A stretch of DNA of 63,478 nucleotides from a virus: IMG/VR virus record IMGVR_UViG_3300049811_000165, positions 1 to 63,478 of that record, one strand, 5' to 3'. The translations under genes and the position numbers were made by a program. Under the pieces are notes generated by a model. That model saw only the letters and a list, made by a program, of their open reading frames with translations. It was not told the origin of the DNA and ran no database searches. Shown here one piece after another: positions 530 to 52,685 of the stretch (positions within the stretch are counted from its first letter, which is position 1; the number at the start of each line of letters is the position of its first letter).

Positions 530-994
530 TTACGGAACCGCGCGAGCCAGCACGCACAGGCGCGCCTTGCCGGCCGCGAACGTCGCGGCAGCGGTCGTCA
601 CCTTCAGCGCGATGGCGCGGTCGGTCTCGACAGCCTGCACGGCGTTCAGCACGCGGCCAGCGTTGCGGCTGAAGCCGCCAGCGCGCGCGTCATTGATGCC
701 CGAGGCCCACACCGCGCCGCCGTCGGCCGCAGCCGTCGACAGGTCGGTCTTGCCCGAGTTGAGCAAGCCCAGCGACAGGGCCAGCGTGGGGGTGCCGTTG
801 CTGTCGAGGTCGTCGCAGTCGAGCGTGTAGTCGACCGGAACGTGACCGCCGGGCAGCGGACCGAGTTCGATCGTGTCGTTGATCACGGGCGCGGCCGTGA
901 GGTTGATCTCGTAGTACAGGGCCACGACTTCGCCGCCCTGCGCGATCTTCGACGGGAGCTTGCCCGCCGCGTAGTCACTCTTGATGTTCGCCAT
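530..994 (-). CDS. Putative capsid decoration / capsid-associated structural protein
   Basis: 154-aa ORF directly downstream of the major capsid gene, Ala/Gly/Thr-rich and beta-type in composition. The call is by position only. Confidence 0.4.
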   Translation of the reverse strand: MANIKSDYAAGKLPSKIAQGGEVVALYYEINLTAAPVINDTIELGPLPGGHVPVDYTLDCDDLDSNGTPTLALSLGLLNSGKTDLSTAAADGGAVWASGINDARAGGFSRNAGRVLNAVQAVETDRAIALKVTTAAATFAAGKARLCVLARAVP

Positions 995-1022
995 CTTGAT
1001 CTCCTGGTGAGGTTCGAGGGAG

Positions 1023-1042
1023 GGGCCGGATCACTCCGGCCC
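1023..1042 (-). promoter_or_regulatory. Stable hairpin immediately after the major capsid stop codon
   Basis: GGGCCGGA-tcac-TCCGGCCC gives an 8-bp perfect stem. On the mRNA strand the loop is GUGA (GNRA-type). There is no U-tract, so it looks like an RNA stabiliser or processing element rather than a terminator. Confidence 0.45.
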
Positions 1043-1050
1043 GTCATCCC

Positions 1051-2190
1051 TTAGCCCGGGTTGGCCGCAGCGGTGTCGATCGCGATCGAACCGAAGTCCT
1101 TCTCGACGCCATCGATGCTGAAGCGGGTCTTCTTGACGCCCGCGATCGTGCTGGTCGTGATGACCGCCTGATTGCCGTTGTCGCGCGACTCCTCGTGCCA
1201 GTCGAAGCGCAGGCCGGTGCCCGGCGAGCCGAAGGCCACCACAGCAGCCTGACGCCCCAGGAACAGCGAGCGCGCCACCGCCACCGAGCCGGCGCCGCCG
1301 TCAGTGCGACGGAGGACCGAGCGGTGCTTGTGCAGCACGACGTTGTTGTAGAGGCCCAGCGAGCCCTTGAAGATCGGGTTCGCGCGGCCCTCGGCGCCGG
1401 CAGCCGCCTTCTGGATGTCGAGCCACTGGCCGGTCGTCGCGTTCGTGCGAACGTCGTACTCCTGCCACGGGTGCATCACGAGGACGAAGTGCTCCTCGCC
1501 GTCGATCATCACCGGCTCGATCATCGGGGTGCCCGACGTGCCGCCGCCCATCGTCTCGGCGCGCGCCACGGCGCGGTCGATCAGCGACAGGGACATCTTG
1601 TCGCCCGAGGTGATGGCGCCGAAGGTGCCCGAGCCCGCAGCGATGTAGTGCTCGCTGTCGGGGGCGTAGAAGGCGTTGTTGGCGAAGCCCGCGTAGCCGG
1701 AGCTGTAGGTGTAGTCCTGGTTCGCGAACGAGGCCGCGCCCGAGCCCGACGTGCGGAAGCCGCCCGACAGGTACAGGAAGAACAGCTCGTCGAAGATGCG
1801 AGCCCACCACTCCGACTGACGGGCGCGAGCGATCTTGCGCAGGTCATGGATGGTGCGCTTGCGGGTCATGCGACCGCCAGTGTTGACGCCGCCGCGAGCC
1901 TGATCGATGTACACGTTGTCCGTGTAGAACTTCAGGTCTTCTTCCTTGCCCTCCAGCGTGTTGTCGCCTTCGACCGGCTGCATCTTGAGCTGCATGACGA
2001 GGTCGTAGGTGATCTGGTCGCCAGCGTCGTTTTCGAGCTGGGGCAGCATCTGGATGGGGGTCTGGGCTTCGACACCGACGCCCATGAACTTCTTGTTGAA
2101 GTAGGACTTGCGGCCAACGTCGACCGCCAGGAAGGCCGAGTAACGCTTGACCGCCTTGGCGTCATTGAGACCGATGATGGTCTTGGACAT
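1051..2190 (-). CDS. Major capsid protein (HK97 fold, N4 gp56 / DUF4043-like family)
   Basis: 379 aa. N-terminal block YFNKKFMGVG...GDQITYDLVMQL...EGDNTLEGKEEDLKFYTDNVYIDQARGGV matches the pattern I recall for N4-gp56-type capsid proteins. It lies downstream of the portal and scaffold genes. Confidence 0.85.
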   Translation of the reverse strand: MSKTIIGLNDAKAVKRYSAFLAVDVGRKSYFNKKFMGVGVEAQTPIQMLPQLENDAGDQITYDLVMQLKMQPVEGDNTLEGKEEDLKFYTDNVYIDQARGGVNTGGRMTRKRTIHDLRKIARARQSEWWARIFDELFFLYLSGGFRTSGSGAASFANQDYTYSSGYAGFANNAFYAPDSEHYIAAGSGTFGAITSGDKMSLSLIDRAVARAETMGGGTSGTPMIEPVMIDGEEHFVLVMHPWQEYDVRTNATTGQWLDIQKAAAGAEGRANPIFKGSLGLYNNVVLHKHRSVLRRTDGGAGSVAVARSLFLGRQAAVVAFGSPGTGLRFDWHEESRDNGNQAVITTSTIAGVKKTRFSIDGVEKDFGSIAIDTAAANPG

Positions 2191-2200
2191 GAGTGGTTCT

Positions 2201-2228
2201 CCTGATGAGATTGGGTTCGATCATCAGG
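2201..2228 (-). promoter_or_regulatory. Hairpin in the capsid mRNA leader that overlaps the capsid SD
   Basis: CCTGATGA-N12-TCATCAGG gives an 8-bp perfect stem. On the mRNA the 3' arm runs into ucaucAGGAGaaccacucAUG, so part of the SD lies within the stem. Confidence 0.45.
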
Positions 2229-2306
2229 CACTCTTGCGCCCGTTGTCACCCCCCGTTGTCGAGGGACGAAGAGGATCCTACTACAGCGTGAATCGGTTGG
2301 AGCAAG

Positions 2307-2381
2307 TGGCTGGTCCCCCAGGACTCGAACCTGGACTGCACGGTTTTGGAGACCGGCATCCTGCCATTGGAACAGGGACCA
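2307..2381 (-). tRNA. trnW: tRNA-Trp (anticodon CCA), with encoded 3' CCA
   Basis: Reverse complement: TGGTCCC TG TTCC AATGGCA GGAT G CCGGT CTCCAAA ACCGT GCAGT CCAGG TTCGAGT CCTGG GGGACCA G CCA. It has a 7-bp acceptor stem, a GG in the D-loop and a TTCGAGT T-loop. The anticodon arm is nearly identical to E. coli tRNA-Trp. Confidence 0.9.
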
Positions 2382-2385
2382 GCGG

Positions 2386-2619
2386 TTAGAACGTGGTGGG
2401 CTGCGCGATGCCGCGAATCACGGCCATGAAGCCCTTCTGCAAGTCGGTCGCCCCGATGCTGATCCATCGCTGGTCGAGCGACGGGTTCGAGCTGGTGCGC
2501 AGCTTCTCGACATAGGCGCCGACCTGCTCGGCCAGGGCCTTGCCCTCGTTCATGAGGGCCACCTCCGCCCCGGTGAGCTGACGGTAGCCGGTGATCTTCG
2601 GTTGTACGAACGTGTCCAT
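2386..2619 (-). CDS. acb2: Acb2-like protein (N4 gp49 / Sf6 gp66 family, PF13876-type); putative cyclic-oligonucleotide sponge (anti-CBASS)
   Basis: 77 aa. C-terminus DQRWISIGATDLQKGFMAVIRGIAQPTTF matches the family signature as I recall it (RW..I..T.LQ.GFM...R.IA.P..F). Tyr12 and Lys27 are 15 residues apart, like the ligand-binding Tyr/Lys pair reported for Acb2. Confidence 0.6.
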   Translation of the reverse strand: MDTFVQPKITGYRQLTGAEVALMNEGKALAEQVGAYVEKLRTSSNPSLDQRWISIGATDLQKGFMAVIRGIAQPTTF

Positions 2620-2704
2620 CTTTCCTCCTGTGGTGGTGCGCTGTTAAGCCCTCGCGAGCCGGCCGAGTCGTCCCAGCCCAGTGTTGCCACGGGTCGCGCT
2701 GACC

Positions 2705-2893
2705 CTACCGCAGCACCCCTTCTTTCGCCATCTCGCTCCCGGCGGCCCGGGTCGGCGGGTCAACGCGCACGCCCGGGGGAGCTACCACCCTCAGACGTGC
2801 GCGCTGCCCACTCTTCTCTTCGAGGGTGACCACGGCGTCGCCGATGGACGCCGTCTCCCCCACTCTCAGCTCGATGACGATCGATCGGTTCAT
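2705..2893 (-). CDS. CsrA-fold protein (divergent carbon-storage-regulator homologue)
   Basis: 62 aa. IVIELRVGETASIGDAVVTLEEKSGQRARLRVVAPPGVRVDPP aligns by eye with E. coli CsrA [45 protein letters not shown]. The start overlaps the scaffold stop (TGATG). Confidence 0.55.
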   Translation of the reverse strand: MNRSIVIELRVGETASIGDAVVTLEEKSGQRARLRVVAPPGVRVDPPTRAAGSEMAKEGVLR

Positions 2894-3870
2894 CAGCCGC
2901 GCAGGTACTTAGCCTGACGCTCCTCCGGCATGCGGGCCAGGGCCTTCTCCAGCTCCAGGCCCGACAGGTTGTCGAGGTCCGAGAACTCGTCGGTGCCCAC
3001 CGGCTCGGCCGAGGCCGGCGGCAGGTTGCCCACGCCCTTGAGGGGAACGTCGGGGAGGCGCGCCTTGACGGCCTCCTTCACGCTCTCCTTGGGCGTCTCC
3101 TTGGGCTTGGGCTCGATCGCCTTGCCCTTGGCGAAGCCCAGCGACTCGGCCACCTTCGAGACCTCGGCCAGGACCGCCTTGTGGCCCTCGCGCAGGAACC
3201 ATTCGGCAGGCTTGCTGGCGAACTCCTCCTTGGCGGCCAGGGTCCGCACCTCGCGGTCCCACATGGCCATGAGGGTCGGGTTCTTGTCGTAGTCGACGCC
3301 GTCGGTGGCCTTGAAGTCCTTCTTCACCTGCTCGATCGTCCAGGCGTACTGCGCGCGCTGCACGGCGGCGTTCTGCTCGATCGCGTGGTCGTGGTCGGCC
3401 TTGCGGCGGTCCAGCAGGGCGATCTTGTCGTTCAGGGTGTCGAGCTGGTCCTCGTACTCGTCGGTCGAGATGTCGCCGTCGCGGTGCTTCTGGCGCAGAT
3501 CCTTGCGCTCGTCGAGCAGCGTGCCGCGCTCGGCCTCGTAGTCGCCGACCTCGGGGACGGTGATCAGTGCGGCAGGAGGGGGCTGGAGCGTTGCAGGCTC
3601 CGCCTCACCAGCACCCGCAGCTTCACCCGCAGGAGCGCCGTCTTCTCCGGCAGGCGCAGCCGCCTCGCCACCGGGGTCAGCGCCATCGCCCGCATCCGAT
3701 GCAGGAGCGCCATCTCCCTCGGCAGCCACAGCGCCCGGAGAGCCATCTCCTTCGTCGTCGTCGCCCTCGTCGCCCTCGTTCGCATCAACATGCCCGCCCT
3801 CCTCGACATCGTCCAGAGCTTCCAGCTCCTCGTCCGATAGACCAGCCTTCTCGTCGTCACGCAGTCCCAT
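2893..3870 (-). CDS. Scaffolding protein (putative)
   Basis: 325 aa. It has a very acidic low-complexity N-terminal third, then a charged helical region. It lies between the portal/appendage genes and the capsid gene. Confidence 0.55.
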   Translation of the reverse strand: MGLRDDEKAGLSDEELEALDDVEEGGHVDANEGDEGDDDEGDGSPGAVAAEGDGAPASDAGDGADPGGEAAAPAGEDGAPAGEAAGAGEAEPATLQPPPAALITVPEVGDYEAERGTLLDERKDLRQKHRDGDISTDEYEDQLDTLNDKIALLDRRKADHDHAIEQNAAVQRAQYAWTIEQVKKDFKATDGVDYDKNPTLMAMWDREVRTLAAKEEFASKPAEWFLREGHKAVLAEVSKVAESLGFAKGKAIEPKPKETPKESVKEAVKARLPDVPLKGVGNLPPASAEPVGTDEFSDLDNLSGLELEKALARMPEERQAKYLRG

Positions 3871-3890
3871 TGTTTCCTCCTTGGTTGGGG

Positions 3891-4373
3891 TTACAGCTCG
3901 CCCGCCTCTTCGAGAGCGAGCAGCACGGCCATCACCTCTTCGAGGCCATCGTCGACCGCAGCCTGCAAGGTAGCAGGGGCAGACTTAGTTGGAGCAACCC
4001 GCACAGGTTCTTTCGCCTGCGGCACGAACTGGTAGACCGGCTGGATGACGTTCCCAGCCTGGGTACGATCGTTCCCTGATTGGGTACGATCCTCGATTCG
4101 CGAATCGCGAAGACTCTCGATCTCGACGGTGACCCGCTTATCAAGTGAGGCTTTACTTGCGGGCCGCTTGTTAAACTTACGGGCCGCGTTATTTGAGGAT
4201 CGCCGCGCGCGGGCCTCCTCGATGACGCGCCACTTGTCGAGCACGCGCTCGACCAGATCCCCGCCGCCGCCGTGGTACTCCAGGTCGAGGGTGGGCTGGG
4301 GCGTGACCTCTTGCTCGACGCCGAACAGGCGCCCAGCGAACAGCTTGCCCGCGAAGAGCTGGCCACGGAACAC
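3891..4373 (-). CDS. Hypothetical structural-module protein
   Basis: 160-aa ORF. It carries short internal tandem repeats (FAGKLFAGRLF; DRTQSGN/DRTQAGN, encoded by a 21-bp x2 repeat at 4051-4092). Confidence 0.55.
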   Translation of the reverse strand: MFRGQLFAGKLFAGRLFGVEQEVTPQPTLDLEYHGGGGDLVERVLDKWRVIEEARARRSSNNAARKFNKRPASKASLDKRVTVEIESLRDSRIEDRTQSGNDRTQAGNVIQPVYQFVPQAKEPVRVAPTKSAPATLQAAVDDGLEEVMAVLLALEEAGEL

Positions 4374-4374
4374 G

Positions 4375-4983
4375 CTATGCCCCGTCCGCCACGACGGAGA
4401 TCCGGTTGCCCGCCTCGTCGAAGGTGGCCACGATGCGGTCCTTGTCGTCGGCCGCGCTGCGATACCGCTCGGTCGGGGTGCCGATCCCGGTCGTCTTGCC
4501 CAGGATGCCGGCGCGGATCACCGCGATGGCTTGCTCAGCCGGGACGCCTTCGAGCAGGTAGGCCCAGGCCGCCGCCGCGTTCTGCTCGGCCGTGGGCGCG
4601 CTGCCACCGCCACCCGTGGCCACGGTGATCGCCTGCACTGGCTGCTGGTAGTTGATCCGCACGATGAAGCTGCCCACCGTGTTGATGAACGGATCCCCGC
4701 CGCCGTCGACCAGGAGCACGCCGTCGCTCACGTTCAGCGTGTGGCTGGCCTCCTGGGGCCGCACGCGCCAGCCATTGAGCAGGAAGGCGTAGATCGGGAT
4801 CGAGGTGCCCGAGCCCGGGTCGATCGGGTTGCCGCCGACCTGGGCCATCGCGGGCAGGTACTTGGAGTTGTCGCCGGTCAGGGACCAGTCGACCCATCGG
4901 CTCCAGAGATCGCGCACCGACAGCGCCACCGTCCCAGATGACAGGATGATGCGCTTGTTCGGGCCGTCGAAGGTGATCGCCAC
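4375..4983 (-). CDS. Conserved podovirus tail-appendage-associated protein (function unknown)
   Basis: 202 aa. The motif LWSRWVDW...DNSKYLPA...GGNPIDPGSG..IPIYAFLLNGWRVRPQEASHTL.V.DGVL..DGGGDPF recalls proteins encoded beside tail-fibre genes of T7-like marine phages. This is from memory only. Confidence 0.5.
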   Translation of the reverse strand: MAITFDGPNKRIILSSGTVALSVRDLWSRWVDWSLTGDNSKYLPAMAQVGGNPIDPGSGTSIPIYAFLLNGWRVRPQEASHTLNVSDGVLLVDGGGDPFINTVGSFIVRINYQQPVQAITVATGGGGSAPTAEQNAAAAWAYLLEGVPAEQAIAVIRAGILGKTTGIGTPTERYRSAADDKDRIVATFDEAGNRISVVADGA

Positions 4984-5002
4984 GTGGCCTCCTCACCCCG
5001 CC

Positions 5003-6361
5003 TTAGGCGAGGTAGCCCCGGTCTTGCTCGGCGGTCAGCGTGAAGGACAGGCCCTTCGAGCGCGAGATGGTGCCCGTGGCCACCACCGGCTTCGCACTGC
5101 CGGCGTTGCCCGCCACGATGGTCACGGCCGCGTCAGTGCCGGCGGTGCGCCCGCCCTGCACGTTGCCGTCGTAGTCGAACGAGAAGGAGATGGCCGCACC
5201 AGTGATGGCCCCCGTGATCGGGTTGCCGTCCTTGTCGTTGACCGTCACCGCGCCGCTCTCGCCGTAGTCGTTGGATGCTCCCGGAAGAGTCGTGAAGTAC
5301 ATGCGGAAGTAGCCCGTGCCGCCCGCCGTGAGGAAGGAGTTGAAGTTGAGCGTACCGGCCGCCGCGTAGGGGTAGGTGCGCTGCACGCTGTTCTGGTCGA
5401 GGAAGACCACGCGGTTCAAGTCCGCCGGCAGCACGCCCTCGATGAACACGCCCTGCGTGGTGTAGAGCGTGTCGCCCACGAAGTAGCAGAGCTGGCCCTC
5501 GGTCTTGCCCGTCACCGAGCCGGCGCCCGCGTCGATGTCGCTGTTCTGGCGCAGCAGGTACTGGACCTTCGTGTAGACCTGCTCCAGCGTCCCGCCGTTG
5601 GCCTGGATGATCTTGCGGAACGGGTACGAGCCCCCGCCGATCGTCTTGTTCTGGTCGGTCCCGTAGTAGGTGACCGTGATCCCGCTGTAGGGCGCGCCGC
5701 TCATGGCCGCGTCGTTGGCGGTGATCTTCAGGTCCGAGCCCACCGAGACGGGCAGCGAGACCTTGTACGCGCCGGTCCCGCTCTCGCCCACGTCGCCCAG
5801 CACTGCGTCGTCGTAGGTGTAGTTCGGCTCGCGGCAGAAGAGCTTGAAGTAGGTGCGGGTGTCGAAGTTGCCGTTGCTCGCGTCACCGAAGACCTGGATC
5901 GCCTCATTGGGCGCGTCGGTGAAGGTGAAGTTGACGGCCGCGCCGCCCGCCGCGCGCTGGTAGTAGAACTGGGCGCCACCAGGGAAGCCTGAGGCGAGCG
6001 CCACGATGCCGACGTACTGGCGATTGAGCACGCCCACTGCGCTGAACTCGGACCAGCCCGCGTCTCGGATCATCTGGCGCGTGGTGTCATCGGCCGGCTT
6101 CCACCCGTTGAACGTGCCGCCCGGATCCTGGCCGAAGATGTACTGGCCCGAGCGAGCGTCCAGGATGTTCATGGGGAACGGGTAGGGCTGGTAGGTCGAC
6201 AGCGTCCACAGGTCGACGAACTTGGCCCACAGCGCGTTGCCCGTGACGCCATCCTTGGCCACGAGGTTGCCCGCCGCCACCAGGGTGAAGGTGCGGGCCG
6301 GGAGGTTGAACGTGATCTCGGTGCCTACGTTCAGGTCATCTGGGTCGATGATCTTGGGCAT
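5003..6361 (-). CDS. Virion structural protein, putative tail appendage component
   Basis: 452-aa ORF, Gly/Thr/Asn-rich and beta-type, co-oriented and tightly packed with 4375..4983 and 6370..8943. Confidence 0.5.
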   Translation of the reverse strand: MPKIIDPDDLNVGTEITFNLPARTFTLVAAGNLVAKDGVTGNALWAKFVDLWTLSTYQPYPFPMNILDARSGQYIFGQDPGGTFNGWKPADDTTRQMIRDAGWSEFSAVGVLNRQYVGIVALASGFPGGAQFYYQRAAGGAAVNFTFTDAPNEAIQVFGDASNGNFDTRTYFKLFCREPNYTYDDAVLGDVGESGTGAYKVSLPVSVGSDLKITANDAAMSGAPYSGITVTYYGTDQNKTIGGGSYPFRKIIQANGGTLEQVYTKVQYLLRQNSDIDAGAGSVTGKTEGQLCYFVGDTLYTTQGVFIEGVLPADLNRVVFLDQNSVQRTYPYAAAGTLNFNSFLTAGGTGYFRMYFTTLPGASNDYGESGAVTVNDKDGNPITGAITGAAISFSFDYDGNVQGGRTAGTDAAVTIVAGNAGSAKPVVATGTISRSKGLSFTLTAEQDRGYLA

Positions 6362-6369
6362 GTCGTCTC

Positions 6370-8943
6370 CTACACGAGGTACGCCCGGTCAGCCACCTGG
6401 GCCACCGGGAGGGAAGCGTTGCTGGTGCCGAGGGCGAGCCCCCGGATGAAGTACGGGATGTAGCCGGCAGCGTAGACCGCGATGTCCACGGTTGGAGTGC
6501 CCTCGTAGTTGAAGGCGTAGGTCGTGCCCCCGCCATCGCGCGAGTCGAGCACGGTCTCGGTGCCGGCCGTCAGGACCACCACGTCGGACCCAGCCACGAG
6601 CCCGGTGAGGGTCAGCGTCGCGGTGTCGAGCGCGTACTGGTACGCCTGGGTCGTGGTCGTGCTGGTGGTGAGCACGTAGACCGAGGTGATCGCCGTCGTG
6701 TTGGTCGTACCCGTGGTGATGCGCAGCTTGAGCTTGAAGCCCTTGAGCGCGTCGATCCCCGTCAGGGCGTTCAGGTCGGTGCCGAGCTGGGCGGCCGTGC
6801 GCTCCGCGCTCCATGCACTGAAGCCGGCGCCGTCGTTCTTGTCGATCTGGAAGGCGTAGGTGTAGTTGCCCGCCGTGCCGCCCGCCATCACGAGCGCCGA
6901 GTTCTGGAAGCCGGCGTGGCCGATCCGGTACTCGGGCATGGTGAAGGTGGCCGTCATGCCGATCGTGGGCATGTACAGGCGGCCAGCGGCAGTGAAGGCC
7001 GCGCCACCCGTGAGCGCCACCTGGGCGGCGGTATCGGTGGTGGGCTCGTTCATGAGCACGCCGATGCGCCCAGCCGTGGTCGAGGTGTGCGAGTCGAACC
7101 AGTGCGAGCCGTAGCACGCGGTCTGCGCCGTCATGGCGTGGGTCATGCCCAGCCCGGCCTGCGACACGTTGAGCATCGGGGTCACTGGCGCGTCGGCGTA
7201 GTCGCCATGCAGGTCGCGCAGCAGGACGCCCTTCGAGCTGTTGTCGCCCGAGTACAGGGTGGTCCGGGTGTTGGCCACGTAGACCCGCTTGACCTCGACG
7301 GTCTGCGCAGCGGCGCCGGCCGCCAGGACCAGGACGGTGCCGGTCTGGTTGGCCGAGCCCAGGCTGAGCTTCGAGGCGTAGGTGCCGATGTTGCGCAGCT
7401 TGATGTTCGCGCAGCCCGCCGCGCCGATGTTCAGGATCGCGTTGTAAGGCTGCTGGTTCGTGAGCCCACCGAAGGTCAGCCCGCTCATCGTGATGTTCAG
7501 GCAGTTGGACGCCAGATCCCACACCTGCATCCCGTTCGTGGTGCCCGTGGCCGCGCTCGGCGTGTCGTGGTAGATCGTCCCGGTGTAGGTCACGTTCGTG
7601 CAAGTGGTCAGGAGATGGCGCCCGCAGCCGATCGTGCAGTCGACGAAGGAGGTGTTGGCCACCCGAGTCAGGGTTGCCGAGCCGGTGGTGGCGTTGCCGC
7701 GCGCCACGCGCGAGGTGGAGTAGGTCCGGGTGAAGGTGAAGCCCGAGATGTCGGTGAGCGACATCACGTAGCGGCCCGAGGCGGCGAGCGTGGCCGAGGT
7801 CCACTTGCAGTCGGTGATCGTCCCGCCCGCGAAGCACAGCGACATGCTCAGGCCGAACTGGGCGTTGGCCGCTTCCTGGCCCACGCACACCCGAGTCAGG
7901 GTCATGGGCTGGGCCACCTCGGATAGCGAGAGCTGGGTCGAGATGCCCACGTCCGTCATGACCACCGAGTACGCCTGCGAGATGGACGGATACCAGTTGA
8001 GCAGGGCGCGGTCGATGTCGATCACGCCACCGCCCGTGGTGGTGAAGTCGTAGCGCGTGGCCAGCGTGGCGTTGGGCAGGGCGTTCGTGCCGCGCGCGGC
8101 CGTGGTGCAGACCGCAGTGAGGATGTTGGGGATGCGGATCTTGCAGCCCGCAGCCGGGACGTAGCCCACCGTGTTCGTGCCGTCCGAGCCGAACCGCAGC
8201 ACGCCAGCGGTCGAGGCCCAGCACACCTTGCCCTGCACCGCGTTGGTCGCAGTCGAGGCAGCGGCCACGAGGGATCCAGCGCACGGGTAGGGCTCGTAGA
8301 CCCCAGAGCCGGGCGCGGTCTCGACCCATACCGCCGGGTAGTATTGGACCGAGCCGTTCGTGGGGAGCTGGTAGGTCGTGGCGCTCGATCCGCTGGTGGA
8401 TCCCACCTCGAACCAGTCGCCCCGCACGCGGAAGGTGCCCAGCCGGTTGCAGTTGATCGTGGCCAGCTCGTCGCCGACCAGCTCGATGAAGCCGGCCACG
8501 TCCGCCCCGGTGGCGCTGGCCGAGATACCGGTCAGGGCTCCAGCCGCGAAGGCGCCGCCCGTGACCTGCTTGACCGTGATGAAGCCGGTCGCAGGCATGG
8601 CCGCCGCTGGCGCAGTGGGGGTCGCGTTGATGGCGCTCTGCACGCGAATGAGCTTGCCGCTCACCCCGCCCTGCGAGATCACTGTGCCATAGGCCGGGAC
8701 GTTGCCACTACCCCCGGTGTAGGCGATCTGCCTCACCTGGGTCGTGTTGATCTCGATGTCACCGCCCTTCGAGGCGTTGATGGTCATCGAGCCCATCGAC
8801 AGGGCTGCGCCACCGCCGACACCGTAGCGGGTGTCCTGGTCGATGGTGAACTTGAAGCCGTTCGTGTCGACCGTGTCACCCCCCGTGCGGGCGGGGGACA
8901 GCGCGTCGACGTTCGTGTTCGCTGAGAGGACGTAGGCGGTCAT
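6370..8943 (-). CDS. Beta-helix tailspike / depolymerase-like protein
   Basis: 857 aa, rich in Thr/Gly/Ala/Asn with recurring short beta-rung-like segments (e.g. NITMSGLTFGG, NIKLRNIGT, VMTDVGIS). This is typical of right-handed parallel beta-helix receptor-binding proteins. Confidence 0.5.
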   Translation of the reverse strand: MTAYVLSANTNVDALSPARTGGDTVDTNGFKFTIDQDTRYGVGGGAALSMGSMTINASKGGDIEINTTQVRQIAYTGGSGNVPAYGTVISQGGVSGKLIRVQSAINATPTAPAAAMPATGFITVKQVTGGAFAAGALTGISASATGADVAGFIELVGDELATINCNRLGTFRVRGDWFEVGSTSGSSATTYQLPTNGSVQYYPAVWVETAPGSGVYEPYPCAGSLVAAASTATNAVQGKVCWASTAGVLRFGSDGTNTVGYVPAAGCKIRIPNILTAVCTTAARGTNALPNATLATRYDFTTTGGGVIDIDRALLNWYPSISQAYSVVMTDVGISTQLSLSEVAQPMTLTRVCVGQEAANAQFGLSMSLCFAGGTITDCKWTSATLAASGRYVMSLTDISGFTFTRTYSTSRVARGNATTGSATLTRVANTSFVDCTIGCGRHLLTTCTNVTYTGTIYHDTPSAATGTTNGMQVWDLASNCLNITMSGLTFGGLTNQQPYNAILNIGAAGCANIKLRNIGTYASKLSLGSANQTGTVLVLAAGAAAQTVEVKRVYVANTRTTLYSGDNSSKGVLLRDLHGDYADAPVTPMLNVSQAGLGMTHAMTAQTACYGSHWFDSHTSTTAGRIGVLMNEPTTDTAAQVALTGGAAFTAAGRLYMPTIGMTATFTMPEYRIGHAGFQNSALVMAGGTAGNYTYAFQIDKNDGAGFSAWSAERTAAQLGTDLNALTGIDALKGFKLKLRITTGTTNTTAITSVYVLTTSTTTTQAYQYALDTATLTLTGLVAGSDVVVLTAGTETVLDSRDGGGTTYAFNYEGTPTVDIAVYAAGYIPYFIRGLALGTSNASLPVAQVADRAYLV

Positions 8944-8946
8944 GGG

Positions 8947-11601
8947 CTAGTTCGGCTTGATCACAGCGGTCATCCGCTTGCCGTCCTTGCCCGTGACCTC
9001 GATGGTCTTGCCTTGCGGCTTCTTGGAGTCGGCGAGCGCCTTGGCCACGTCGGACGTGCTCTGGTCCACCTTGGCGACCGCCTTGGTGACCTCGGCCGCC
9101 GTGTTGGCCACGCTCTCGGTGGTCTGGTCGACGGAAGCGGCCACCGCGTCAACGGTCTGGGCTACCCCAGCCACCGCCTGCGAGGTCTGCTCCATCGCGC
9201 CGGCCACGCCATCCAGGGCGGCGGCCACGCCTGCGGCCACGTCGGTGAGCTGCTGCTGGGTCTGGGCGATCTGGGCCAGCACAGCAGCCAGATCAGGTCC
9301 GACGGCGCCCGGCAAGGGTGCCGAGGAGGCGGCAACACCCGGGGGAACCGGGGCCGTCGGATCCATCACGCCGGCAGCGGCCGGCATACCGCCAGGGGCG
9401 GACATAGGTGCGGGTGGCGCCTGCACGCCTTGAGCGGCCAAGTCGACCTGCTTGTGCTGGTCGGCCTGCGCCATCTGGGCCTGCTCTCCAGGCTGCATGG
9501 GGGTCGTGCCCTCCACGGCCTGCTGCTGCGAGACGTTTTGCAGGTCCATCGCCACCGCATCGCGGGGGATGGCCATGCGGATCTGGTCGGCCTCGGCATC
9601 GGCCTTGTTGGCGGACGCCTCGTCCTTGGCGATCTTGGCCGCTGCTGCGCTCTTCTCCAGCTCGGCAGCCTCCGCAGCGGCAGCCTCGGCCTCAGGGTTC
9701 TTCGGCCCCTCGCCGCGCGCCTCAGCGATCAGCATGCGAACGCGCTCCAGCATCTCCTCTTTGCCCGGGAAGTCGGCCACGTCGATCAGCAGGTCCAGCA
9801 TCGAGATGGCGAACGTCGGGTTGAGCGGGGCGATCTTGGTGATCATCTCGTTCAGGCTCTCGAACATGGCCTGACGCATGGACGCCTTGAAGTCCTGCTC
9901 GTCGACCACGAAGTCCGCGCTCGATGCTGAGATGTCGTTCAGGAAGCGCACGCTGCCATCGGGCTGCTGCTCGGGCTGGTTGATCCTCACCCACTGGAAC
10001 TGGCGCCCCTTGGGGTCCGCGAGGCGGATCACCTTGGGCATGGTGTAGAACTTCTCGGCGTTGCTGAGCTGCTTCTGCCCCGAGATGGACATCGCCAGCC
10101 GGAAGTTGTCGAAGATCCCGCTCGTGGTGAGCGAGCCCTGGTCCTGGCGCGCCGCGATGGCCACGCCCGAGGTGGCATTGGTGCGCCGGCCCAGCAGCTC
10201 ATCGGTCACGCCCGAGCCGGACTGGATGAACTGCCGGTTCATGGTGACCAGCTCGGTCTGCCCTTGCAGCTCCATGTAGTCGCGACGGATGTCGAACTTC
10301 TTCGAGCCGTCCTTCATGACGATCACGCCGTTGGGCTTCGAGACCTCCTCAGCCATGTCGGCCAGGGTGTACTCGCCCTTGTCGTCGAACGCGCCCTGCT
10401 CGGTGATCACTTGGTTCACCGACAGCAGGAACAGCGCCTTGCTCATGCGCTTGTTCAGGTCTTCCTGCGGGTCGCGGATGTTGCGCACCAGCCCATAGGG
10501 CAGGCCATCACGCGAGCGGCGGAAGGCGTAGATCGGGGTGAAGGGGAACTTGTTGTGCTTGAACGGGCTCGGCAGGTCTTCGAGCAGGCAGTCGTCGACG
10601 AAGTACGAGCAGCGCACCATCATGGTCGTGCTCGGCACCACGTAGGAGCGGCCCTCCTCGACAGCGGCCACGTGAGCCCGGCTCTGCGGGTCGAACGTCT
10701 CACCATCGAAGCCGCCGCCGACCAGGGCCTCGACCTTGGCCGGCACCCTGTACCAGCACTCGTAGAGGCGGACGCGCTGACGCGAGGTGAAGGCGCCATT
10801 GACCGCGTCGGACATCACGGAGCGGTGGAAGCTGCGCACCTCACGCGAGTCGAGGCGAGAGCCCAAGTACCACAGGGCTGCGTCATCCTCGGCGGCCAGC
10901 TCCTCCTCGCCCTTGGCTGATCGCTGAAGCTGGGCCTTCTTGTCCGGGAACATGGCGCACGCCACGTCCAGGTCCAGGTCGCGCCAGCGGAACACGTAGC
11001 GCATGCCCTCACTGTCGACCGATCGATCGAGCGAGTCCTGCAAGACGTTGCGCCAGGACTCGGTGCCCGCGTAGAGCACGTCCTTGGTGGCGTCGGGACT
11101 GATCGAGTCCTCCAGCCAGCCCAGGCCAGCGACCACGGCGTCCTTGAACGCCGCGCTGCGCACGTAGGGGACGCGGTTGGCGTCCGAGATGTACTTCATG
11201 ACCTTGGTCTTGACCTCGGCATCGGTGACATCGTCGTCCGTGCGGGGCAAGACCTTCCAGTCGGTGCGGTTGCGCTTCTCGGATCCGATCACCCAGTCGC
11301 AGGTGATCTTGACCTCGTTGTAGACCAGGGGCGCTTGGCCACGGGACTGCACTACCTGGGCGTCCTCCTCTGTCCACTGGAGCCCGTCGTAGAAGTCCTC
11401 GTCGATCGCCATCTGCTGCCGGTTGTCGGCCTGACGGCTGCGCTCCTCGTTGAACCACTCCTTGAGGCGCGAGAGGTGCTTGCGCTCGACATCGCCCATC
11501 TCATCGGGATCCTGAGCAGCGCGCGCCTCCTCCTCAAGGGACGAGGGAAGGCCGAGCTGCTTGCTGCGCCCGGACACGCGCGGGGACTGCTGGATCGCCA
11601 T
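8947..11601 (-). CDS. Portal protein with a long Ala/Gln-rich C-terminal extension
   Basis: 884 aa. The N-terminal region has QQMAIDEDFYDGLQWTEEDAQVVQSRGQAPLVYNEVK, the portal signature D.DFY.G.QW. Its size and position are as in P22/N4-type portals. Confidence 0.85.
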   Translation of the reverse strand: MAIQQSPRVSGRSKQLGLPSSLEEEARAAQDPDEMGDVERKHLSRLKEWFNEERSRQADNRQQMAIDEDFYDGLQWTEEDAQVVQSRGQAPLVYNEVKITCDWVIGSEKRNRTDWKVLPRTDDDVTDAEVKTKVMKYISDANRVPYVRSAAFKDAVVAGLGWLEDSISPDATKDVLYAGTESWRNVLQDSLDRSVDSEGMRYVFRWRDLDLDVACAMFPDKKAQLQRSAKGEEELAAEDDAALWYLGSRLDSREVRSFHRSVMSDAVNGAFTSRQRVRLYECWYRVPAKVEALVGGGFDGETFDPQSRAHVAAVEEGRSYVVPSTTMMVRCSYFVDDCLLEDLPSPFKHNKFPFTPIYAFRRSRDGLPYGLVRNIRDPQEDLNKRMSKALFLLSVNQVITEQGAFDDKGEYTLADMAEEVSKPNGVIVMKDGSKKFDIRRDYMELQGQTELVTMNRQFIQSGSGVTDELLGRRTNATSGVAIAARQDQGSLTTSGIFDNFRLAMSISGQKQLSNAEKFYTMPKVIRLADPKGRQFQWVRINQPEQQPDGSVRFLNDISASSADFVVDEQDFKASMRQAMFESLNEMITKIAPLNPTFAISMLDLLIDVADFPGKEEMLERVRMLIAEARGEGPKNPEAEAAAAEAAELEKSAAAAKIAKDEASANKADAEADQIRMAIPRDAVAMDLQNVSQQQAVEGTTPMQPGEQAQMAQADQHKQVDLAAQGVQAPPAPMSAPGGMPAAAGVMDPTAPVPPGVAASSAPLPGAVGPDLAAVLAQIAQTQQQLTDVAAGVAAALDGVAGAMEQTSQAVAGVAQTVDAVAASVDQTTESVANTAAEVTKAVAKVDQSTSDVAKALADSKKPQGKTIEVTGKDGKRMTAVIKPN

Positions 11602-40790: not shown

Positions 40791-41038
40791 TGGAAGACCC
40801 GCTCACCCCGTCGCTGCTGCGCCTTGCGATCGACACCGCGATCAGGGGCGACACCATGACCTTCTACGCCGAGCGCGACTGGGAGCCCGGGGCGGGCTTC
40901 CCGGGCTACAGCGTGCGGTCGACGGGCGGGCTGCTGCCCGACTACAAGATCATCGAGTGCGACCCGTTCGACCTCGTGGCCTACCTTGTCGACGCCGGGG
41001 TGGGCAAGAGCATGCCCATCCCCGTTCGTCGCCTATAG
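40790..41038 (+). CDS. Hypothetical protein (82 aa)
   Basis: Start moved to the ATG at 40790 (TGATG overlap). Its stop overlaps the stop of the convergent giant gene within CTATAG (41033-41038). Confidence 0.55.
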   Translation: MEDPLTPSLLRLAIDTAIRGDTMTFYAERDWEPGAGFPGYSVRSTGGLLPDYKIIECDPFDLVAYLVDAGVGKSMPIPVRRL

Positions 41039-44000
41039 CTTCTTCCTCAAGGTCTCGCTGGCCTTCTCCAGCTTCTGCTTCTCGCGCTCGACGCGGCGGT
41101 CGAACTCCTGCTGGGTGATCCCGTTGCGCGACAGCTCTCGGGCGAGGCCCTTGATGTTGTTCTGGATCTCGCGCTGGGCCTGCTGGAAGTCCTGCACCGC
41201 GCGCAGCCGCAGCGCATCCTCGGGGTAGGCCCGAGCCTTCACGCCGACTGACGACAGCGCCGCCGTGGCGAGCGATTGGTCGCGCCCGAAGGCGTCGGTG
41301 CGGCCGGTGCCGGCGTCAAGCAGGCCGGTCCAGGCGTAGGTCTGGAGCTGGCCACGGTCCGTGCCAGGGATGATCGTGCCCGGCCCAGGCAGCGGCAGGT
41401 TCGGGGCGAACGCCTTGAACAGGTGGTCTACCACCTTCGCCATCGCCTCGGCCTTCGTGTCGGTGTCCTTCACGATCTCGCGCCCGGTGAAGCTGGACTT
41501 GTTCGAGAAGAACTCCATCATGATCGAGAGCGGGCCGGAGACAGACAGCCAGCTCGGCACAGGGAGGGCCGCCTGCGACTGGTTCAGGTCGACCATGTCC
41601 CCGCCCGGCACCCAGCGGCGAGCGTCCAGGAACACGGGCGAGCCGTGCGCGTCGTTCCACGGCATGCGGATCAGGCGCGGGAACACGCCAAGCAGGCGCC
41701 CATCCAGCTCGTCGGGCAGTAGCTTGCGCTCGCGGTCCTCGTCGTCCCCACCCAGGCCGAGCATGGCGTAGGCCGCCGCGTTGAGGGCGTAGCCCACGGC
41801 GAGGTACTTGGCGAACTTCCACGGCTTGTGGGCCGCCGCGTTGAGCATCATCGGGATCGCCCGGTACGAGAAGGCGATGAACGGGAGCACCGAGCGCCGC
41901 GCGGCCTGGATCCAGGGGGCGTTGATGTTGTAGTCGAGGAAACTGTCGCGCGCCGCCTTGCCGGCCTCGCGGTCAGGCTTGCCCGCCTCGGTCTCGCGCA
42001 TGAACTTCGCGAGACGGAAGACGGAGTCCTCGCTCTGGTACGCGCGCATCATCAGCTCGAACGGCTTCTTCACCCAGGCCGCCTTCTCCATCGCGGCCTT
42101 GCCAGCGGTGAGCACATGGCCCTGCATGGCGAGGTTGACGATCTGGCTCGCCTTGAGCAGGCCCAGCTCGTTGTTCTCGACCTTCTCCAGCTCGGCAAGC
42201 AGGGGCTCGATGTAGAGCTGGCTCAGCTCGATGTTGGCGAAGGAGCCGTAGTCCGCGCCGCTGTCCTCGAAGCGATCGATCAGGGTCTTGGCCGCTGCGT
42301 CGCCGCGCTTGGCCGCCACGATCACGCGCATCGCCTTGACGATGTCGCGCGCCCGCACCTCGGCGAGGTCGGCCAGCACGAAGTTGGACATCACGTTGTT
42401 GGTGTGGACCGCAGGCGAGAGCGCCGTCTTCGACAGCTTCCAGTTGCGCACGAGCGCATCCCACGCCGCGCTCGTGGCGTCCGCCGGCCGCGCGAGCTGG
42501 TTGCGGATGTCGTTCCACACCGGGGCCGGGATGATCTTGCCCGCCAGCGCGCCGTACTTCTTCAGCTTGGTGCCGGCGATCTCGGTGTCCGGCACACGCA
42601 CGAACTCGTCGGGCTTGAACGCCTGGGTCGCCCAGTACCCGGTCGACGGGTCACCGATGATCTTGTCGGCCGGCGCATCCTCGGTGGCGTACTTCTCGGC
42701 CACCCACTTCAGGAACTTGGCGTTCTCGATGTCGCGGATCCCGTTGATAACGGTCTTGGCGAAGGCGAAGCGCACCTCCTCGATCTCGCCCAGCTTGTGC
42801 CGCTCCTCGGCGGTCATGTCGCGCCAGAGCCCGACCTTGTTGCCCGGGCGGTCCAGCCAGCGCGCCTCCCAGGTGTCGGCCTTGGTGTAGCCCTTCGGGC
42901 CGGCGGCGCCGTGCTTGACGTAGCGCACCGCCGTGACCTTGCCGCTGGGGCTGCGCGCCTCCCATCGGTCGAGCAGGTCGCCTTCCTTGATCTCGTCGAT
43001 CGCCTGCACGAGGGCGTCCGCCTTCACGTCGTGGCGGATGCCGCGCCCCTTGAAGTTCTCGGCCCGGATGGCTGCCGCGCGCTTGGCTGCTGCGCCGGCC
43101 GCGCCGGGCTTCATGTGCGCCTCGTAGATCCGGTGCAGGTAGGCCATCTTGTTGCGCTCGTAGCTGTCGGGCGTGAGCAGCCCGACAGACACCGCCTCGC
43201 GGCCGAGCGTGTCGATCAGCGACTTCATGTTGCGCAGCGTGGCGCGGTCGTCGGCCGGGATCTGGGCCAGGAGTTGCTGCTCCAGCTCGGTGTCCGGCTT
43301 CTCGGCCATCCACAAGTAGGCCACCCGGGACTGCTCGCGGGTGAGCCCAGCCAGCGAGTCCAGCAGGTTCTTGGTCTCGCGCAGCACCTTGTTGACCGCC
43401 GCCGTTCGGTCGATCTTGGCGTCCAGGTACATGCCCTCCAGGCCGAAGTCGGACACGAGCCCGTGCTTGACCCGGTCCGGGACGATCCTGGCGCCCTGCC
43501 GGATGAGGTAGTCGTAGGCTGGGCCGGAAAGCAGCCGCCCTACCCAACCCATGCCGAGCTTGAATGCGCCGTCCAGAAGGCCCGTCCTGGCCGCCGGAGA
43601 GGCATTCGCTGGGGTCTGGGTAGCCCGGGATTGCAGGCCGGCGGCGCGGACAAACTGGACGGGCACGTCCGAGTTGAGGACCACGGCCACGCCGGACAGG
43701 CCGTCGACGTAGCCGTCGTAGCCCGCCTTCAGCAGGGCCATCTCCCAGGCGTTGCGGGTGCCCGCCTCGTCGCGGATGAAGATCCCGGACTGGGTCCAGC
43801 CCACCGGCTCGACCTTGATCGAGGGCGAGATCCCGGATTTCCAGAGGTTCGCCAGCCGCACCTCGTGCCGGTTCGGGCCGAGCCCGCCCTCGCGCAGGGG
43901 GATGGTGCCGTTGTCGCGCTGGGTGTAGAAGTAGACCCGGCGGCGGATCTCCTCCGGCGCGCCGCTCAGGCGCTCAGCCTCGGCGCCACGGATGCCCTGG

Positions 44001-51349: not shown

Positions 51350-51407
51350 CAGGCCACCTCCAATGAGAGCGACCCATACTACTGCCAGGACTACTGGTTG
51401 GAGGAGC

Positions 51408-52685
51408 CTAGAAGCCCAGCTTCTTTCGGGCGTCGGCAACGGCGGGGGCCGGCGCGGCGCCAGCAGCAGGGGCCGGCTTCCCGCCGCCGGCCTTGGCCTT
51501 GTACTCGGACTTCGCCTTCTCCAGGGCCGCGACCGCATCCATCCCGTCGCGAACGTACTGGTGGGCCGCCGAGCGGATGGACTCGTACTCCGATCGCTTC
51601 TCCGGGGAGATCATGAGGCGACCCATCGGGTCCGTGGTGCCGTAGTCGGCCCCGAGGTTGCGGTCGAGTTGGTTCTGGCGCTGAAGGGTCTGATCCGGGG
51701 TCGGGCGCGCGTCCTTCCGGTTCTCCGCCACGAGCTTGCCGTCGGGGGTCCGCATCTCGGCGCCCTCGGCCAGGATCACGTTCTGGGACTTGGGCGTCGA
51801 GATCCCGGACTGCGCGCGCACGGTGCGGGCCTGCTCCGGCGTGAAGGTCATGGCGACCTTGCCGTCGGCGCCAACCACCTCGATCACGCCATCCTTCCCG
51901 GGGCGGAACTCCTTCAACTCCCAGCCCTCGCCGCCGATGCCGGCGTGGCGACTCGCCGCGATCGCCTTGTCGGTGAAGCCGTTCTCGTAGAGCCACAGGA
52001 CCGTGCCCATCGCGGTGATCTGGTTGCGCTGGGCGTCCATCGCGAGCTGCTTGACCTCGGCCTGCGTCTTGCCCGTGCGCAGCGCCTCGTCGGCCGCGCG
52101 GGTGCGCTCCTTGTACTCGGTGTCGAGCACCTGGGACTGCTTCACGAGGTGGTTCGCGTAGTCCTCGGTGGCGCGCTTGATGAGGCGGTGGTCGCCCTTC
52201 TCCATCGCCACGTCCACGCGGGCCTTGAAGAAGTCCGAGGTGCGCTTGGCCGGGTCCGGCTTGGGGCGCACCACCATCTCGGGCAGCTTGGCGGTCAGGC
52301 CGCCGGCCGCCTGCTCGGCGCCGGGCTGCTGGGTGGCGCCGCCCGCCTCCATCGCGGACGGGCGCATCGCCCCCTGGCCGGGGACTCCAGCCGGGAGCCC
52401 GACGGCCGGCTGGACGCCAGCAGAGGCCGCAGGAGCCTCCGTCGCCTGCACGGTGACGCTACCATCAGGGGCCATGCCCGGGATCGCGTCCTGGGGCGCG
52501 CCAGAGGCCCCCAGGCGCTTTGCCGCCTCGGCGTTCAGGCCGGACTCGTCCTCGGTCAGCTTGGCTTCGTCCTGGAGCTGCTTGAGCTTGATCGCCTCGA
52601 TCTCGCGCCGCTGCTTCTGGTCCTGAAGGTTCTGCCCGACCTGATAGCCCTGGGTCAGTCCGCCGATGAATGCTCCGAAGCTCAT
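51408..52685 (-). CDS. Internal virion / ejection protein (putative)
   Basis: 425 aa with a Gly-rich N-terminus, coiled-coil Gln/Glu/Lys segments and Ala/Pro-rich linkers. It lies immediately upstream of the giant protein, analogous to podovirus internal core proteins. Confidence 0.45.
   Translation of the reverse strand: MSFGAFIGGLTQGYQVGQNLQDQKQRREIEAIKLKQLQDEAKLTEDESGLNAEAAKRLGASGAPQDAIPGMAPDGSVTVQATEAPAASAGVQPAVGLPAGVPGQGAMRPSAMEAGGATQQPGAEQAAGGLTAKLPEMVVRPKPDPAKRTSDFFKARVDVAMEKGDHRLIKRATEDYANHLVKQSQVLDTEYKERTRAADEALRTGKTQAEVKQLAMDAQRNQITAMGTVLWLYENGFTDKAIAASRHAGIGGEGWELKEFRPGKDGVIEVVGADGKVAMTFTPEQARTVRAQSGISTPKSQNVILAEGAEMRTPDGKLVAENRKDARPTPDQTLQRQNQLDRNLGADYGTTDPMGRLMISPEKRSEYESIRSAAHQYVRDGMDAVAALEKAKSEYKAKAGGGKPAPAAGAAPAPAVADARKKLGF

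Follow-up and report, generated by a model that had tools for sequence, protein, structure and literature searches.

Classic targets of CsrA combine an upstream hairpin-loop site with a Shine-Dalgarno sequence that contains GGA, and R44 is the residue most critical for RNA binding in Escherichia coli CsrA. In the FliW-CsrA-flagellin circuit of Bacillus subtilis, the site belongs to the leader of a structural-protein gene that is highly expressed, and in phage P22 the scaffold protein regulates its own synthesis post-transcriptionally, within the head-morphogenesis operon. Homologues of CsrA are widespread in phages, where their role in the phage life cycle has been called untested in a functional study (PMC11879866), and the CsrA-like gene of Lessieviruses has been described as a 'moron' of unknown role (PMC9144972, PMC10269572). 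Here, we consider such a gene in the IMG/VR virus record IMGVR_UViG_3300049811_000165, a complete JGI metagenome contig of 63,478 nucleotides (nt) that was analyzed at its full length and is referred to below as the window. The gene lies between a scaffold-like gene and the gene for the major capsid protein (MCP), together with an Acb2-family gene, a tRNA-Trp gene and a hairpin, termed P1, in the MCP leader. A first-pass annotation made from the sequence alone had grouped the three genes into one accessory, counter-defence island. Our analysis instead favors, with a probability of roughly 0.6, two unrelated layers in this interval, namely an ancestral control of the capsid gene by the CsrA-like protein and P1, and a recent insertion of acb2 and the tRNA gene.

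The window protein resembles CsrA, RsmA and RsmE (PF02599) in profile homology (E 1.5e-9 for its family profile against RsmE, 2jpp), in fold and in length (~60 amino acids, aa), and the locus resembles the flagellin circuit in having a candidate leader hairpin upstream of the Shine-Dalgarno sequence of a highly expressed structural-protein gene. The CsrA-like 'morons' of Bcep22, BcepIL02, DC1, JC1 (gp47) and CSP3 (orf23) belong to the same family and occupy the same place upstream of MCP; the Lessievirus papers treat them as host-modifying, and the window differs from these phages by the insertion downstream of the gene. Unlike in the known CsrA systems, the regulator is here phage-encoded and lies in cis, immediately upstream of what is presumed to be its only target, the loop reads A-N-G-A rather than A-N-GGA-N, the window protein has no equivalent of R44 while its family has a peculiar KSGxRARL motif, and the predicted effect may be activation. 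Neither a small RNA (sRNA) antagonist nor a multi-site regulon was seen, with one site in the window, and an Rfam search of positions 900-4500 returned the tRNA alone, with no known family for the leader and no match of the CsrB/RsmZ type. The P22 system is alike in that the scaffold/coat balance is set inside the head operon, but there the regulator is the scaffold itself, whereas the proposal here involves a protein homologous to CsrA together with a defined hairpin in the leader. The literature searched on this gene family mentions neither a hairpin in the MCP leader nor a role in capsid translation. While the CsrA-like gene itself has been noted before, its pairing with a leader hairpin before the capsid gene is new relative to that literature.

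The CsrA-like protein and its place in the head module

The first of the three products had been assigned a CsrA fold, and this assignment held in profiles and in predicted structure. Besides matching phrog_8397 and RsmE, the protein gave an AlphaFold2 (AF2) monomer with a predicted local distance difference test score (pLDDT) of 84.8, for which the top 14 Foldseek matches were all CsrA, RsmA or RsmE, with a root-mean-square deviation of 0.8 Å over 37 columns of the core. The modeled structure is thus that of a CsrA fold. Against the Pfam CsrA profile, the window protein scored 14.5 bits, below the gathering score of 27, while orthologues from BcepIL02 (32.4 bits) and Gervaise (29.8 bits) passed it. 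As the window score is sub-threshold, the orthologues pass and the family profile matches RsmE, the window protein is a divergent branch of the CsrA/RsmA family. Of the RNA-contact residues of CsrA, which besides R44 include L4, R6, R7, V40, V42 and I47, it retains the equivalents of R7, V40 and V42, and the R44 equivalent is partly kept in the family, some members of which retain Arg.

To follow the gene through its relatives, we used 80 loci that were retrieved from IMG/VR by their MCP, in which CsrA-like open reading frames (ORFs) were sought with a family hidden Markov model (HMM), and 79 loci from bacterial genomes, none of which has an MCP identity above 70% and whose hosts span Beta-, Gamma-, Alpha- and Deltaproteobacteria. 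Of the IMG/VR loci with enough upstream sequence, only two were without a CsrA-like ORF between scaffold and MCP; on inspection, one of these (L024) held a divergent CsrA-like copy and the other (L075) had different upstream genes. In the genome loci the HMM found the gene in 51 of 79, which are nearly all of those with an MCP identity of ~44% or more. The order scaffold, CsrA-like gene, MCP is ancestral, and is found in nearly all of the ~130 relatives at or above this identity. The same arrangement is already annotated for three phages, BcepIL02, Gervaise and PEp14, with a 'CsrA-like regulator' that separates the scaffold-like gene from MCP, and the family also occurs in Ralstonia GP4-like phages and in the Erwinia and Klebsiella phages PEp14 and SopranoGao. 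Hosts in the genera Erwinia, Klebsiella and Pseudomonas, all represented here, have a chromosomal csrA or rsmA. Phage PTXU04 was not among the relatives found for this family, and the phenotype of its csrA knock-down is mentioned as context only.

In 77 related loci, scaffold and MCP are a median of 299 nt apart (interquartile range 283-342), which just fits a CsrA-like gene and a leader, as compared with 702 nt in the window. The first-pass annotation had described a gap of about 700 bp holding three elements, as was found, and had taken scaffold and MCP genes to be normally adjacent, which in this phage group they are not, as the CsrA-like gene normally stands between them. It had also proposed translational coupling of this gene to the scaffold gene, in agreement with the single nucleotide shared by stop and start (TGATG) in the window. 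Since in 44 of 65 loci the CsrA-like gene begins between -4 and +10 nt from the stop of the scaffold gene, coupling to the scaffold is a family trait. By synteny, the CsrA-like gene is a core gene of the head module rather than an accessory one.

A conserved hairpin in the capsid-gene leader

A hairpin core, GCGC-A-N-G-A-GUGC, recurs 20-40 nt upstream of the MCP AUG in the leaders that separate the CsrA-like gene from MCP. This strict pattern is present in 64 of 72 distinct leaders, and nearly all of the others carry loop variants. In an alignment of 57 sequences, P1 is paired in 76.9% of cells, its outer pairs vary on both sides of the stem and its covariation is 0.359, as against 0.127 in shuffles (0 of 500 reach the native value) and 0.07-0.18 in slid registers. 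The inner G.U pair is kept in 44 of the 57 sequences and would be an A.C mismatch if read from the opposite strand; the helix is therefore read as sense-strand RNA.

P1-class hairpins are ~80-fold enriched in the 70 nt upstream of MCP, and the core occurs in a single exact copy in the 63 kb of the window. The training set of a covariance model (R1) comprised the window, two isolate phages and viral contigs; the sole strong match of R1 in the window, at 2182-2245 (34.7 bits, E 1.2e-7), is part of that training set. A second match at 63110-63164 reached 14 bits and is without the P1 motif. In 503 kb of independent bacterial-genome loci, R1 gave 43 matches at E<=0.01, of which 42 end exactly at the MCP start and none lies in a locus without a CsrA-like gene. 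Both parts, the gene and P1, are present in the cultured phages BcepIL02, JC1, Gervaise, PEp14, Itty13 and SopranoGao.

With the sequence CANGA(N)G, the P1 loop is similar to the consensus of CsrA/RsmE sites, CANGGANG. Of the GGA motif, the first G is not conserved in the loop; the Shine-Dalgarno sequence downstream contains GGA. About a dozen leaders (L007, L010, L015, L017, L032, L080, L094, L099, L129, L131, L135 and L140) have two tandem P1-type hairpins, ~20-35 nt apart and within ~70 nt upstream of MCP, an arrangement that would suit a dimeric binder with two RNA-binding faces, under activation or repression alike.

We also considered P1 as a repeated, promoter-like motif and rejected this possibility, given the one exact copy in 63 kb and the absence of the motif from the match at 63110-63164. 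Promoter and terminator scans of 900-4500 found no terminator on the coding strand and a single weak sigma-70-like match (GTGACA, 18 nt, GATGAT; 9/12 positions), which lies at 2249-2220 and overlaps P1.

Pairing of P1 with the ribosome-binding region

In its 3' half (N-GAGUGC), P1 has a complement in the stretch between the Shine-Dalgarno sequence and the AUG (GCACUC-N); where N is U, the AUG itself is included in the pairing. When the duplex energy was calculated free of register, the native value was -12.5 kcal/mol, as compared with -9.1 +/- 0.3 kcal/mol for permuted pairs, and none of 5000 permutations reached the native value. At equilibrium, P1 is disfavored in 52 of the 57 leaders, with a median cost of 4.4 kcal/mol for forcing it. 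When P1 is forced, the mean unpaired probability of the Shine-Dalgarno/AUG region rises from 0.27 to 0.54, with an increase in 52 of the 57 leaders and a decrease in none. In the window leader, Shine-Dalgarno sequence and AUG are sequestered in the minimum-free-energy and centroid folds alike, and forcing P1, at a cost of 5.7 kcal/mol, brings the probability that the initiation region is unpaired from 0.38 up to 0.66. A hairpin that loses to a fold occluding the ribosome-binding site (RBS) is, as far as such models go, what is expected of an 'on' state that is stabilized by a ligand or protein.

Co-occurrence of the CsrA-like gene and P1

P1 was found downstream of every CsrA-like gene examined, second copies included. 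Five loci that held the gene only under the strict pattern all carry loop-variant hairpins, and the 'hairpin only' loci that were checked (L089 and L155) contain divergent CsrA-like ORFs. In four deltaproteobacterial prophages with MCPs of 59-63% identity (L097, L100, L115 and L117), the scaffold gene adjoins MCP (~2860-3001) and both the CsrA-like gene and P1 are absent, so that the two appear to have been lost jointly in this nested clade. Distant loci, with an MCP identity of 39% or less, have neither. L097 contains a GCGC-AAAGA-GCGC hairpin ~105 nt upstream of MCP, possibly a remnant.

In one locus (L050), a second CsrA-like gene (8305-8466) is located 4.3 kb downstream of the first and is followed, 9 nt past its stop, by a second leader with P1, Shine-Dalgarno and anti-initiation sequences (8472-8522), here before a phrog_644 gene (region 8305-8921). 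This leader scored 38.3 bits and was outside the R1 training set. We then retrieved 80 loci with the L050 phrog_644 protein, which gave 66 distinct upstream regions; gene and hairpin were both present in 21 of these and both absent in 35, while 10 had a hairpin without the gene and 0 a gene without the hairpin (Fisher p = 5e-10, with no correction for relatedness). The gene-less hairpins are compatible with regulation in trans by a CsrA-like copy elsewhere in the genome. A third, weak R1 match in L050 (18 bits) ends at the start of a decoration-like gene at 5133.

Proposed control of the capsid gene and alternative explanations

We propose that the CsrA-like protein would be synthesized in step with the scaffold through translational coupling, that its dimer would bind the P1 loop in the MCP leader and stabilize P1, and that the stabilized hairpin would free the Shine-Dalgarno sequence and AUG of MCP. 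Translation of MCP would then be delayed until scaffold and CsrA-like protein have already been made. Binding of the protein to P1 is, in our estimate, probable. Given binding, we lean slightly towards activation rather than repression because, in the folding analysis, a stabilized P1 opens the Shine-Dalgarno/AUG region.

Several points weigh against this proposal and should be considered when referring to it. Besides the sub-threshold Pfam score, the R44 equivalent in the window protein is Pro, and throughout the family T5 is replaced by Glu or Asp (Glu in the window) and R6 by Leu. Most P1 loops read ANGA instead of the canonical GGA, with AGCA or AGUA in some cases. One CsrA peptide was detected in JC1 virions (PMC9144972), which permits a structural role, and together with the diverged contact residues it leaves room for a function that does not involve RNA. 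The alternative pairing gave a weak result when tested in a fixed register (66.1% vs 62.5%), as the register shifts among lineages, and equilibrium folding was done on truncated leaders. Hairpins without an adjacent CsrA-like gene do occur, in L075 and in the 10 phrog_644 leaders, and all of the co-occurrence statistics are inflated by the kinship of the loci. It is also an assumption that acb2 and the tRNA are co-transcribed late with MCP and at capsid-level abundance.

Canonical CsrA logic would lead to the opposite outcome, in which the P1 loop and the Shine-Dalgarno GGA are bridged by the dimer and MCP translation is repressed, with negative feedback limiting MCP relative to scaffold. Once binding is granted, such a repressing bridge is nearly as likely as activation, and over all readings we hold it as a tentative second choice. 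The leaders share the layout of the classic targets, with a site in a hairpin loop 20-40 nt upstream and, in addition, a Shine-Dalgarno sequence that contains GGA (AAGGAG or AGGAG), tandem P1 copies are expected for a two-faced binder and the relatives in the PDB include repressors bound to hcnA and RsmZ. However, the default fold is already closed in 52 of 57 leaders and it is the forcing of P1 that opens the initiation region, and a dedicated repressor just upstream of the gene for the most abundant late protein is less intuitive. We find it unlikely that the CsrA-like protein has kept the fold alone as an assembly or virion protein, with P1 as an independent cis element (an RNase III/E processing site, an mRNA stabilizer or a kinetic folding trap) and with their co-occurrence due to shared ancestry. 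The peptide in JC1 virions, the loss of the R44 equivalent, the changes at positions 5 and 6 and the P1 copies that have no CsrA-like gene beside them all agree with such a separation. It is, nonetheless, at odds with the joint duplication or relocation of gene and hairpin before a different gene, with the P1 that follows every CsrA-like gene, with the joint loss in the nested clade and with the likeness of the loop to the CsrA/RsmE consensus. By analogy with the FliW-CsrA-flagellin circuit, the CsrA-like protein might also alternate between two partners, the MCP leader on the one hand and a protein such as scaffold, unassembled MCP or procapsid on the other, in a rather improbable assembly-sensing switch that would couple MCP translation to the state of capsid assembly and would fit the single JC1 virion peptide; phrog_644 would then be a second structural target in some phages, and the whole a small, phage-encoded, post-transcriptional virion regulon.

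A single host-takeover or counter-defence cassette, in which the CsrA-like protein has host mRNAs or sRNAs at large as its targets and, for instance, represses defences, seems very unlikely. The three elements are adjacent and co-oriented, the gene is termed a moron in the JC1 and CSP3 papers, and phage CsrA/RsmA homologues have been proposed as repressors of host CRISPR-Cas (PMC8450108). Yet the position of the CsrA-like gene is fixed across the group regardless of cargo, the conserved leader element is always downstream of it, the canonical RNA-contact residues have diverged and the gene is present in phages of hosts reported to be without csrA, as Burkholderia hosts are said to be (PMC7366521). 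The trio is, moreover, restricted to the window and one close relative (L003), so that the claim of one linked counter-defence unit does not stand. Should the proposed control of MCP by the CsrA-like protein and P1 be confirmed, these phages would have a dedicated regulator of the CsrA type, encoded in cis, for the stoichiometry of the virion. For the large family of phage CsrA proteins, the locus in any case offers a concrete candidate target, a covarying hairpin before MCP that behaves in silico as an RBS switch.

The Acb2-family gene and the tRNA-Trp insertion

The second gene had been placed in an Acb2/N4-gp49 family, of which the Acb2 part was supported. The protein matches PF24729 (Acb2_Tad1_hairpin) with 56.8 bits (gathering score 27, E 2.5e-15) and, by phmmer, PDB entry 8h2j 'p26', the Acb2 of PaMx33, at E 1.7e-10. 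Its AF2 model (pLDDT 85.2) has helices at 17-42 and 50-72, and the best Foldseek match in the PDB was Acb2 8h2x_D (probability 1.00), followed by T4 Vs.4. The N4-gp49 part was rejected, as PF13876 gave no match at E<=1. The HMM searches suggested by the first-pass annotation thus supported neither PF13876 nor, at threshold, PF02599, with PF24729 taking the place of the former, while the suggested structural comparison returned CsrA-type and Acb2 proteins as best matches.

The window protein shares with PaMx33 Acb2 and T4 Vs.4 the PF24729 domain and the helical hairpin. Its residues Y12, K27, R51 and T58 align with Y11, K26, R67 and T74 of PaMx33 Acb2, of which Y11 and K26 contact cyclic dinucleotides and R67 and T74 cyclic trinucleotides (PMC10312549), and all four are invariant in 41 subfamily members. 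We therefore regard it as a candidate sponge for cyclic di- and trinucleotides. It differs from PaMx33 Acb2 in length (77 vs 93 aa in 8h2j_A) and in its shorter inter-helix loop. The Acb2 of L003 (1418-1699) also has 93 aa, with an extra 16-aa Pro/Gly-rich stretch in the loop, and we considered whether the window gene is a copy damaged by deletion. This was rejected; the inter-helix loop differs by 0 to ~24 residues in the subfamily while both helices are nearly invariant, and because loop length varies with the contact residues unchanged, the short loop is taken as a natural variant.

The boundaries of the insertion were learned from two close relatives among the 80 MCP-related IMG/VR loci. 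Only L003, with a 97% identical MCP, shares Acb2 and tRNA in the slot between CsrA-like gene and MCP, while L004, with an 89% identical MCP, has scaffold, CsrA-like gene and MCP with a 123-nt leader and no Acb2 or tRNA. The 119 nt that follow the tRNA in the window align with the entire L004 leader (score 97, as compared with 48.6 +/- 7.1 for shuffles), beginning 1 nt beyond the CCA end of the tRNA, and it is on this basis that the insertion is delimited (Table 1). It thus starts right after the stop codon of the CsrA-like gene, has its right junction at the tRNA 3' end and leaves the P1 leader intact. Of the proposed accessory island, then, Acb2 and tRNA are indeed inserted relative to L004, while the CsrA-like gene, with its own leader element, is at a fixed position in relatives and belongs to the core. 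On present sequence comparisons, acb2 and tRNA-Trp are a recent, lineage-specific accessory insertion with a plausible role in counter-defence.

The tRNA, placed by the first-pass annotation 4 nt past the acb2 stop, was recovered there by ARAGORN as tRNA-Trp(CCA), and by Rfam as RF00005 (48.2 bits; gathering score 29). It is full-length, with G73 and an encoded CCA end, and the L003 copy has three differences, two of which are acceptor-stem changes that keep pairing as G.U. Genes for tRNA-Trp are common in phages, and Lessieviruses carry a tRNA-Ser elsewhere in the genome. Demand for Trp codons was rejected as an explanation, as Trp usage is unremarkable (1.68% of coding-strand residues and 1.32% in MCP). 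The location of the tRNA at the exact 3' junction inside an operon suggests that it was co-mobilized with acb2, or that it serves as an RNase P/Z site that releases a separate MCP mRNA; Trp decoding and a decoy against tRNA-cleaving defences are other possible roles.

The scaffold-to-MCP interval is a cargo hotspot in relatives. Unknown small ORFs are found there in BcepIL02 (gp48), Gervaise (gp10) and L017, and a GIY-YIG/NUMOD3 homing endonuclease lies between CsrA-like gene and MCP in L021 (3264-4001) and L027 (2206-2766); in L021 a P1-variant hairpin is retained just upstream of MCP despite the insertion. Genes that do match PF13876 (N4 gp49/Sf6 gp66; E ~1e-33) are located between scaffold-like and CsrA-like genes in L040 (3330-3701) and L044 (3338-3697). 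The window insertion is like other phage morons and homing-endonuclease insertions in that relatives carry other cargo at this conserved structural-gene junction, and unlike phage morons in that the scans identified no promoter or terminator of its own and in that it ends exactly at the tRNA 3' end. PADLOC-DB gave no match for the CsrA-like and Acb2-like proteins, BcepIL02 gp48 or Gervaise gp10.

Acb2 itself is found elsewhere without the other two elements. Its close homologues (78-84% identical) are in early or replication regions or beside an integrase, with no tRNA nearby, as opposed to the late head operon of the window, and among the 80 closest IMG/VR Acb2 loci, a tRNA-Trp adjoins Acb2 in the L003 contig only. 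In nine IMG/VR contigs of several MCP lineages (L233, L235, L236, L239, L241, L175, L218, L227 and L195), an Acb2 of 62-78% identity lies between portal and scaffold, at ~2500 in most, and in 5 of the 9 it is followed downstream by scaffold, CsrA-like gene and MCP; in L170, Acb2 is upstream of the portal gene. As Acb2 is found at different head-operon junctions across lineages, it entered head operons more than once.

This recurrence, at two junctions, suggests selection on the time at which the sponge is expressed. Escape from type I CBASS (anti-phage systems in which the signals are cyclic oligonucleotides) maps to the genes for prohead protease, capsid and tail fibre, and late assembly has been described as a determinant of CBASS activation (bioRxiv 10.1101/2023.05.21.541620). 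In the window, Acb2 would come from the head-operon mRNA while capsids assemble. Given this reported link of late assembly to CBASS activation, co-expression of the sponge with the capsid has a reasonable selective rationale, and looks to have been selected for.

Organization of the head region

The window is a distant relative of the Bcep22-like podophages, with an MCP that shares ~48% identity with its counterparts in DC1, Itty13, Ralstonia phages and PEp14, and all genes of its head region are on the minus strand (Table 1).

Table 1 Features of the head region of the window. Positions are those of the 63,478-nt stretch.
Feature	Position	Strand	Remarks
Portal	8947-11601	-	
Four extra ORFs between portal and scaffold	3891-8943	-	857, 452, 202 and 160 aa; no PHROG match at the cut-offs used
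Scaffold-like gene	2893-3870	-	325 aa, acidic N-terminus, phrog_8246
CsrA-like gene	2705-2893	-	62 aa; phrog_8397, E 1.6e-14
Insertion (spacer, acb2, 4 nt, tRNA-Trp)	2307-2704	-	398 nt; from comparison with L004
Spacer with ribosome-binding site	2620-2704	-	85 nt
Acb2-family gene	2386-2619	-	77 aa; PF24729
Gap between acb2 and tRNA	2382-2385	-	4 nt
tRNA-Trp(CCA)	2307-2381	-	ARAGORN; Rfam RF00005
Ancestral MCP leader	2191-2306	-	116 nt; homologous to the entire L004 CsrA-to-MCP intergenic region
P1 hairpin, CGGGCGC-AAGA-GUGCCUG	2225-2242	-	Core GCGCA-N-GA-GUGC at 2228-2239
Translation-initiation region of MCP	2188-2228	-	Shine-Dalgarno AGGAG 2199-2203; AUG 2188-2190
P2 hairpin	2221-2228 with 2201-2208	-	Covers part of the Shine-Dalgarno sequence
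Alternative pairing	2191-2195 with 2229-2233	-	CACUC with P1 GAGUG
MCP	1051-2190	-	379 aa; PF13252, E 8e-64; phrog_334, E 2.4e-104

A scaffold function for the gene upstream of the CsrA-like gene is suggested by its position and composition, and its homologues in relatives have portal on one side and the CsrA-like gene or MCP on the other. The scaffold-like gene comes directly after the portal gene in BcepIL02, Gervaise and PEp14, whereas the window has four ORFs between them, of which those of 202 and 160 aa are common to L003 and L004. This region (3891-8943) is a second lineage-specific expansion of the head module. Outside the head region, a giant ORF of 3501 aa (41033-51538, minus strand) has weak N-terminal PHROG matches to a lytic tail protein, an endolysin and several families of unknown function, and may correspond to the very large DarB-like protein of Bcep22-like phages that is described in the JC1 paper.

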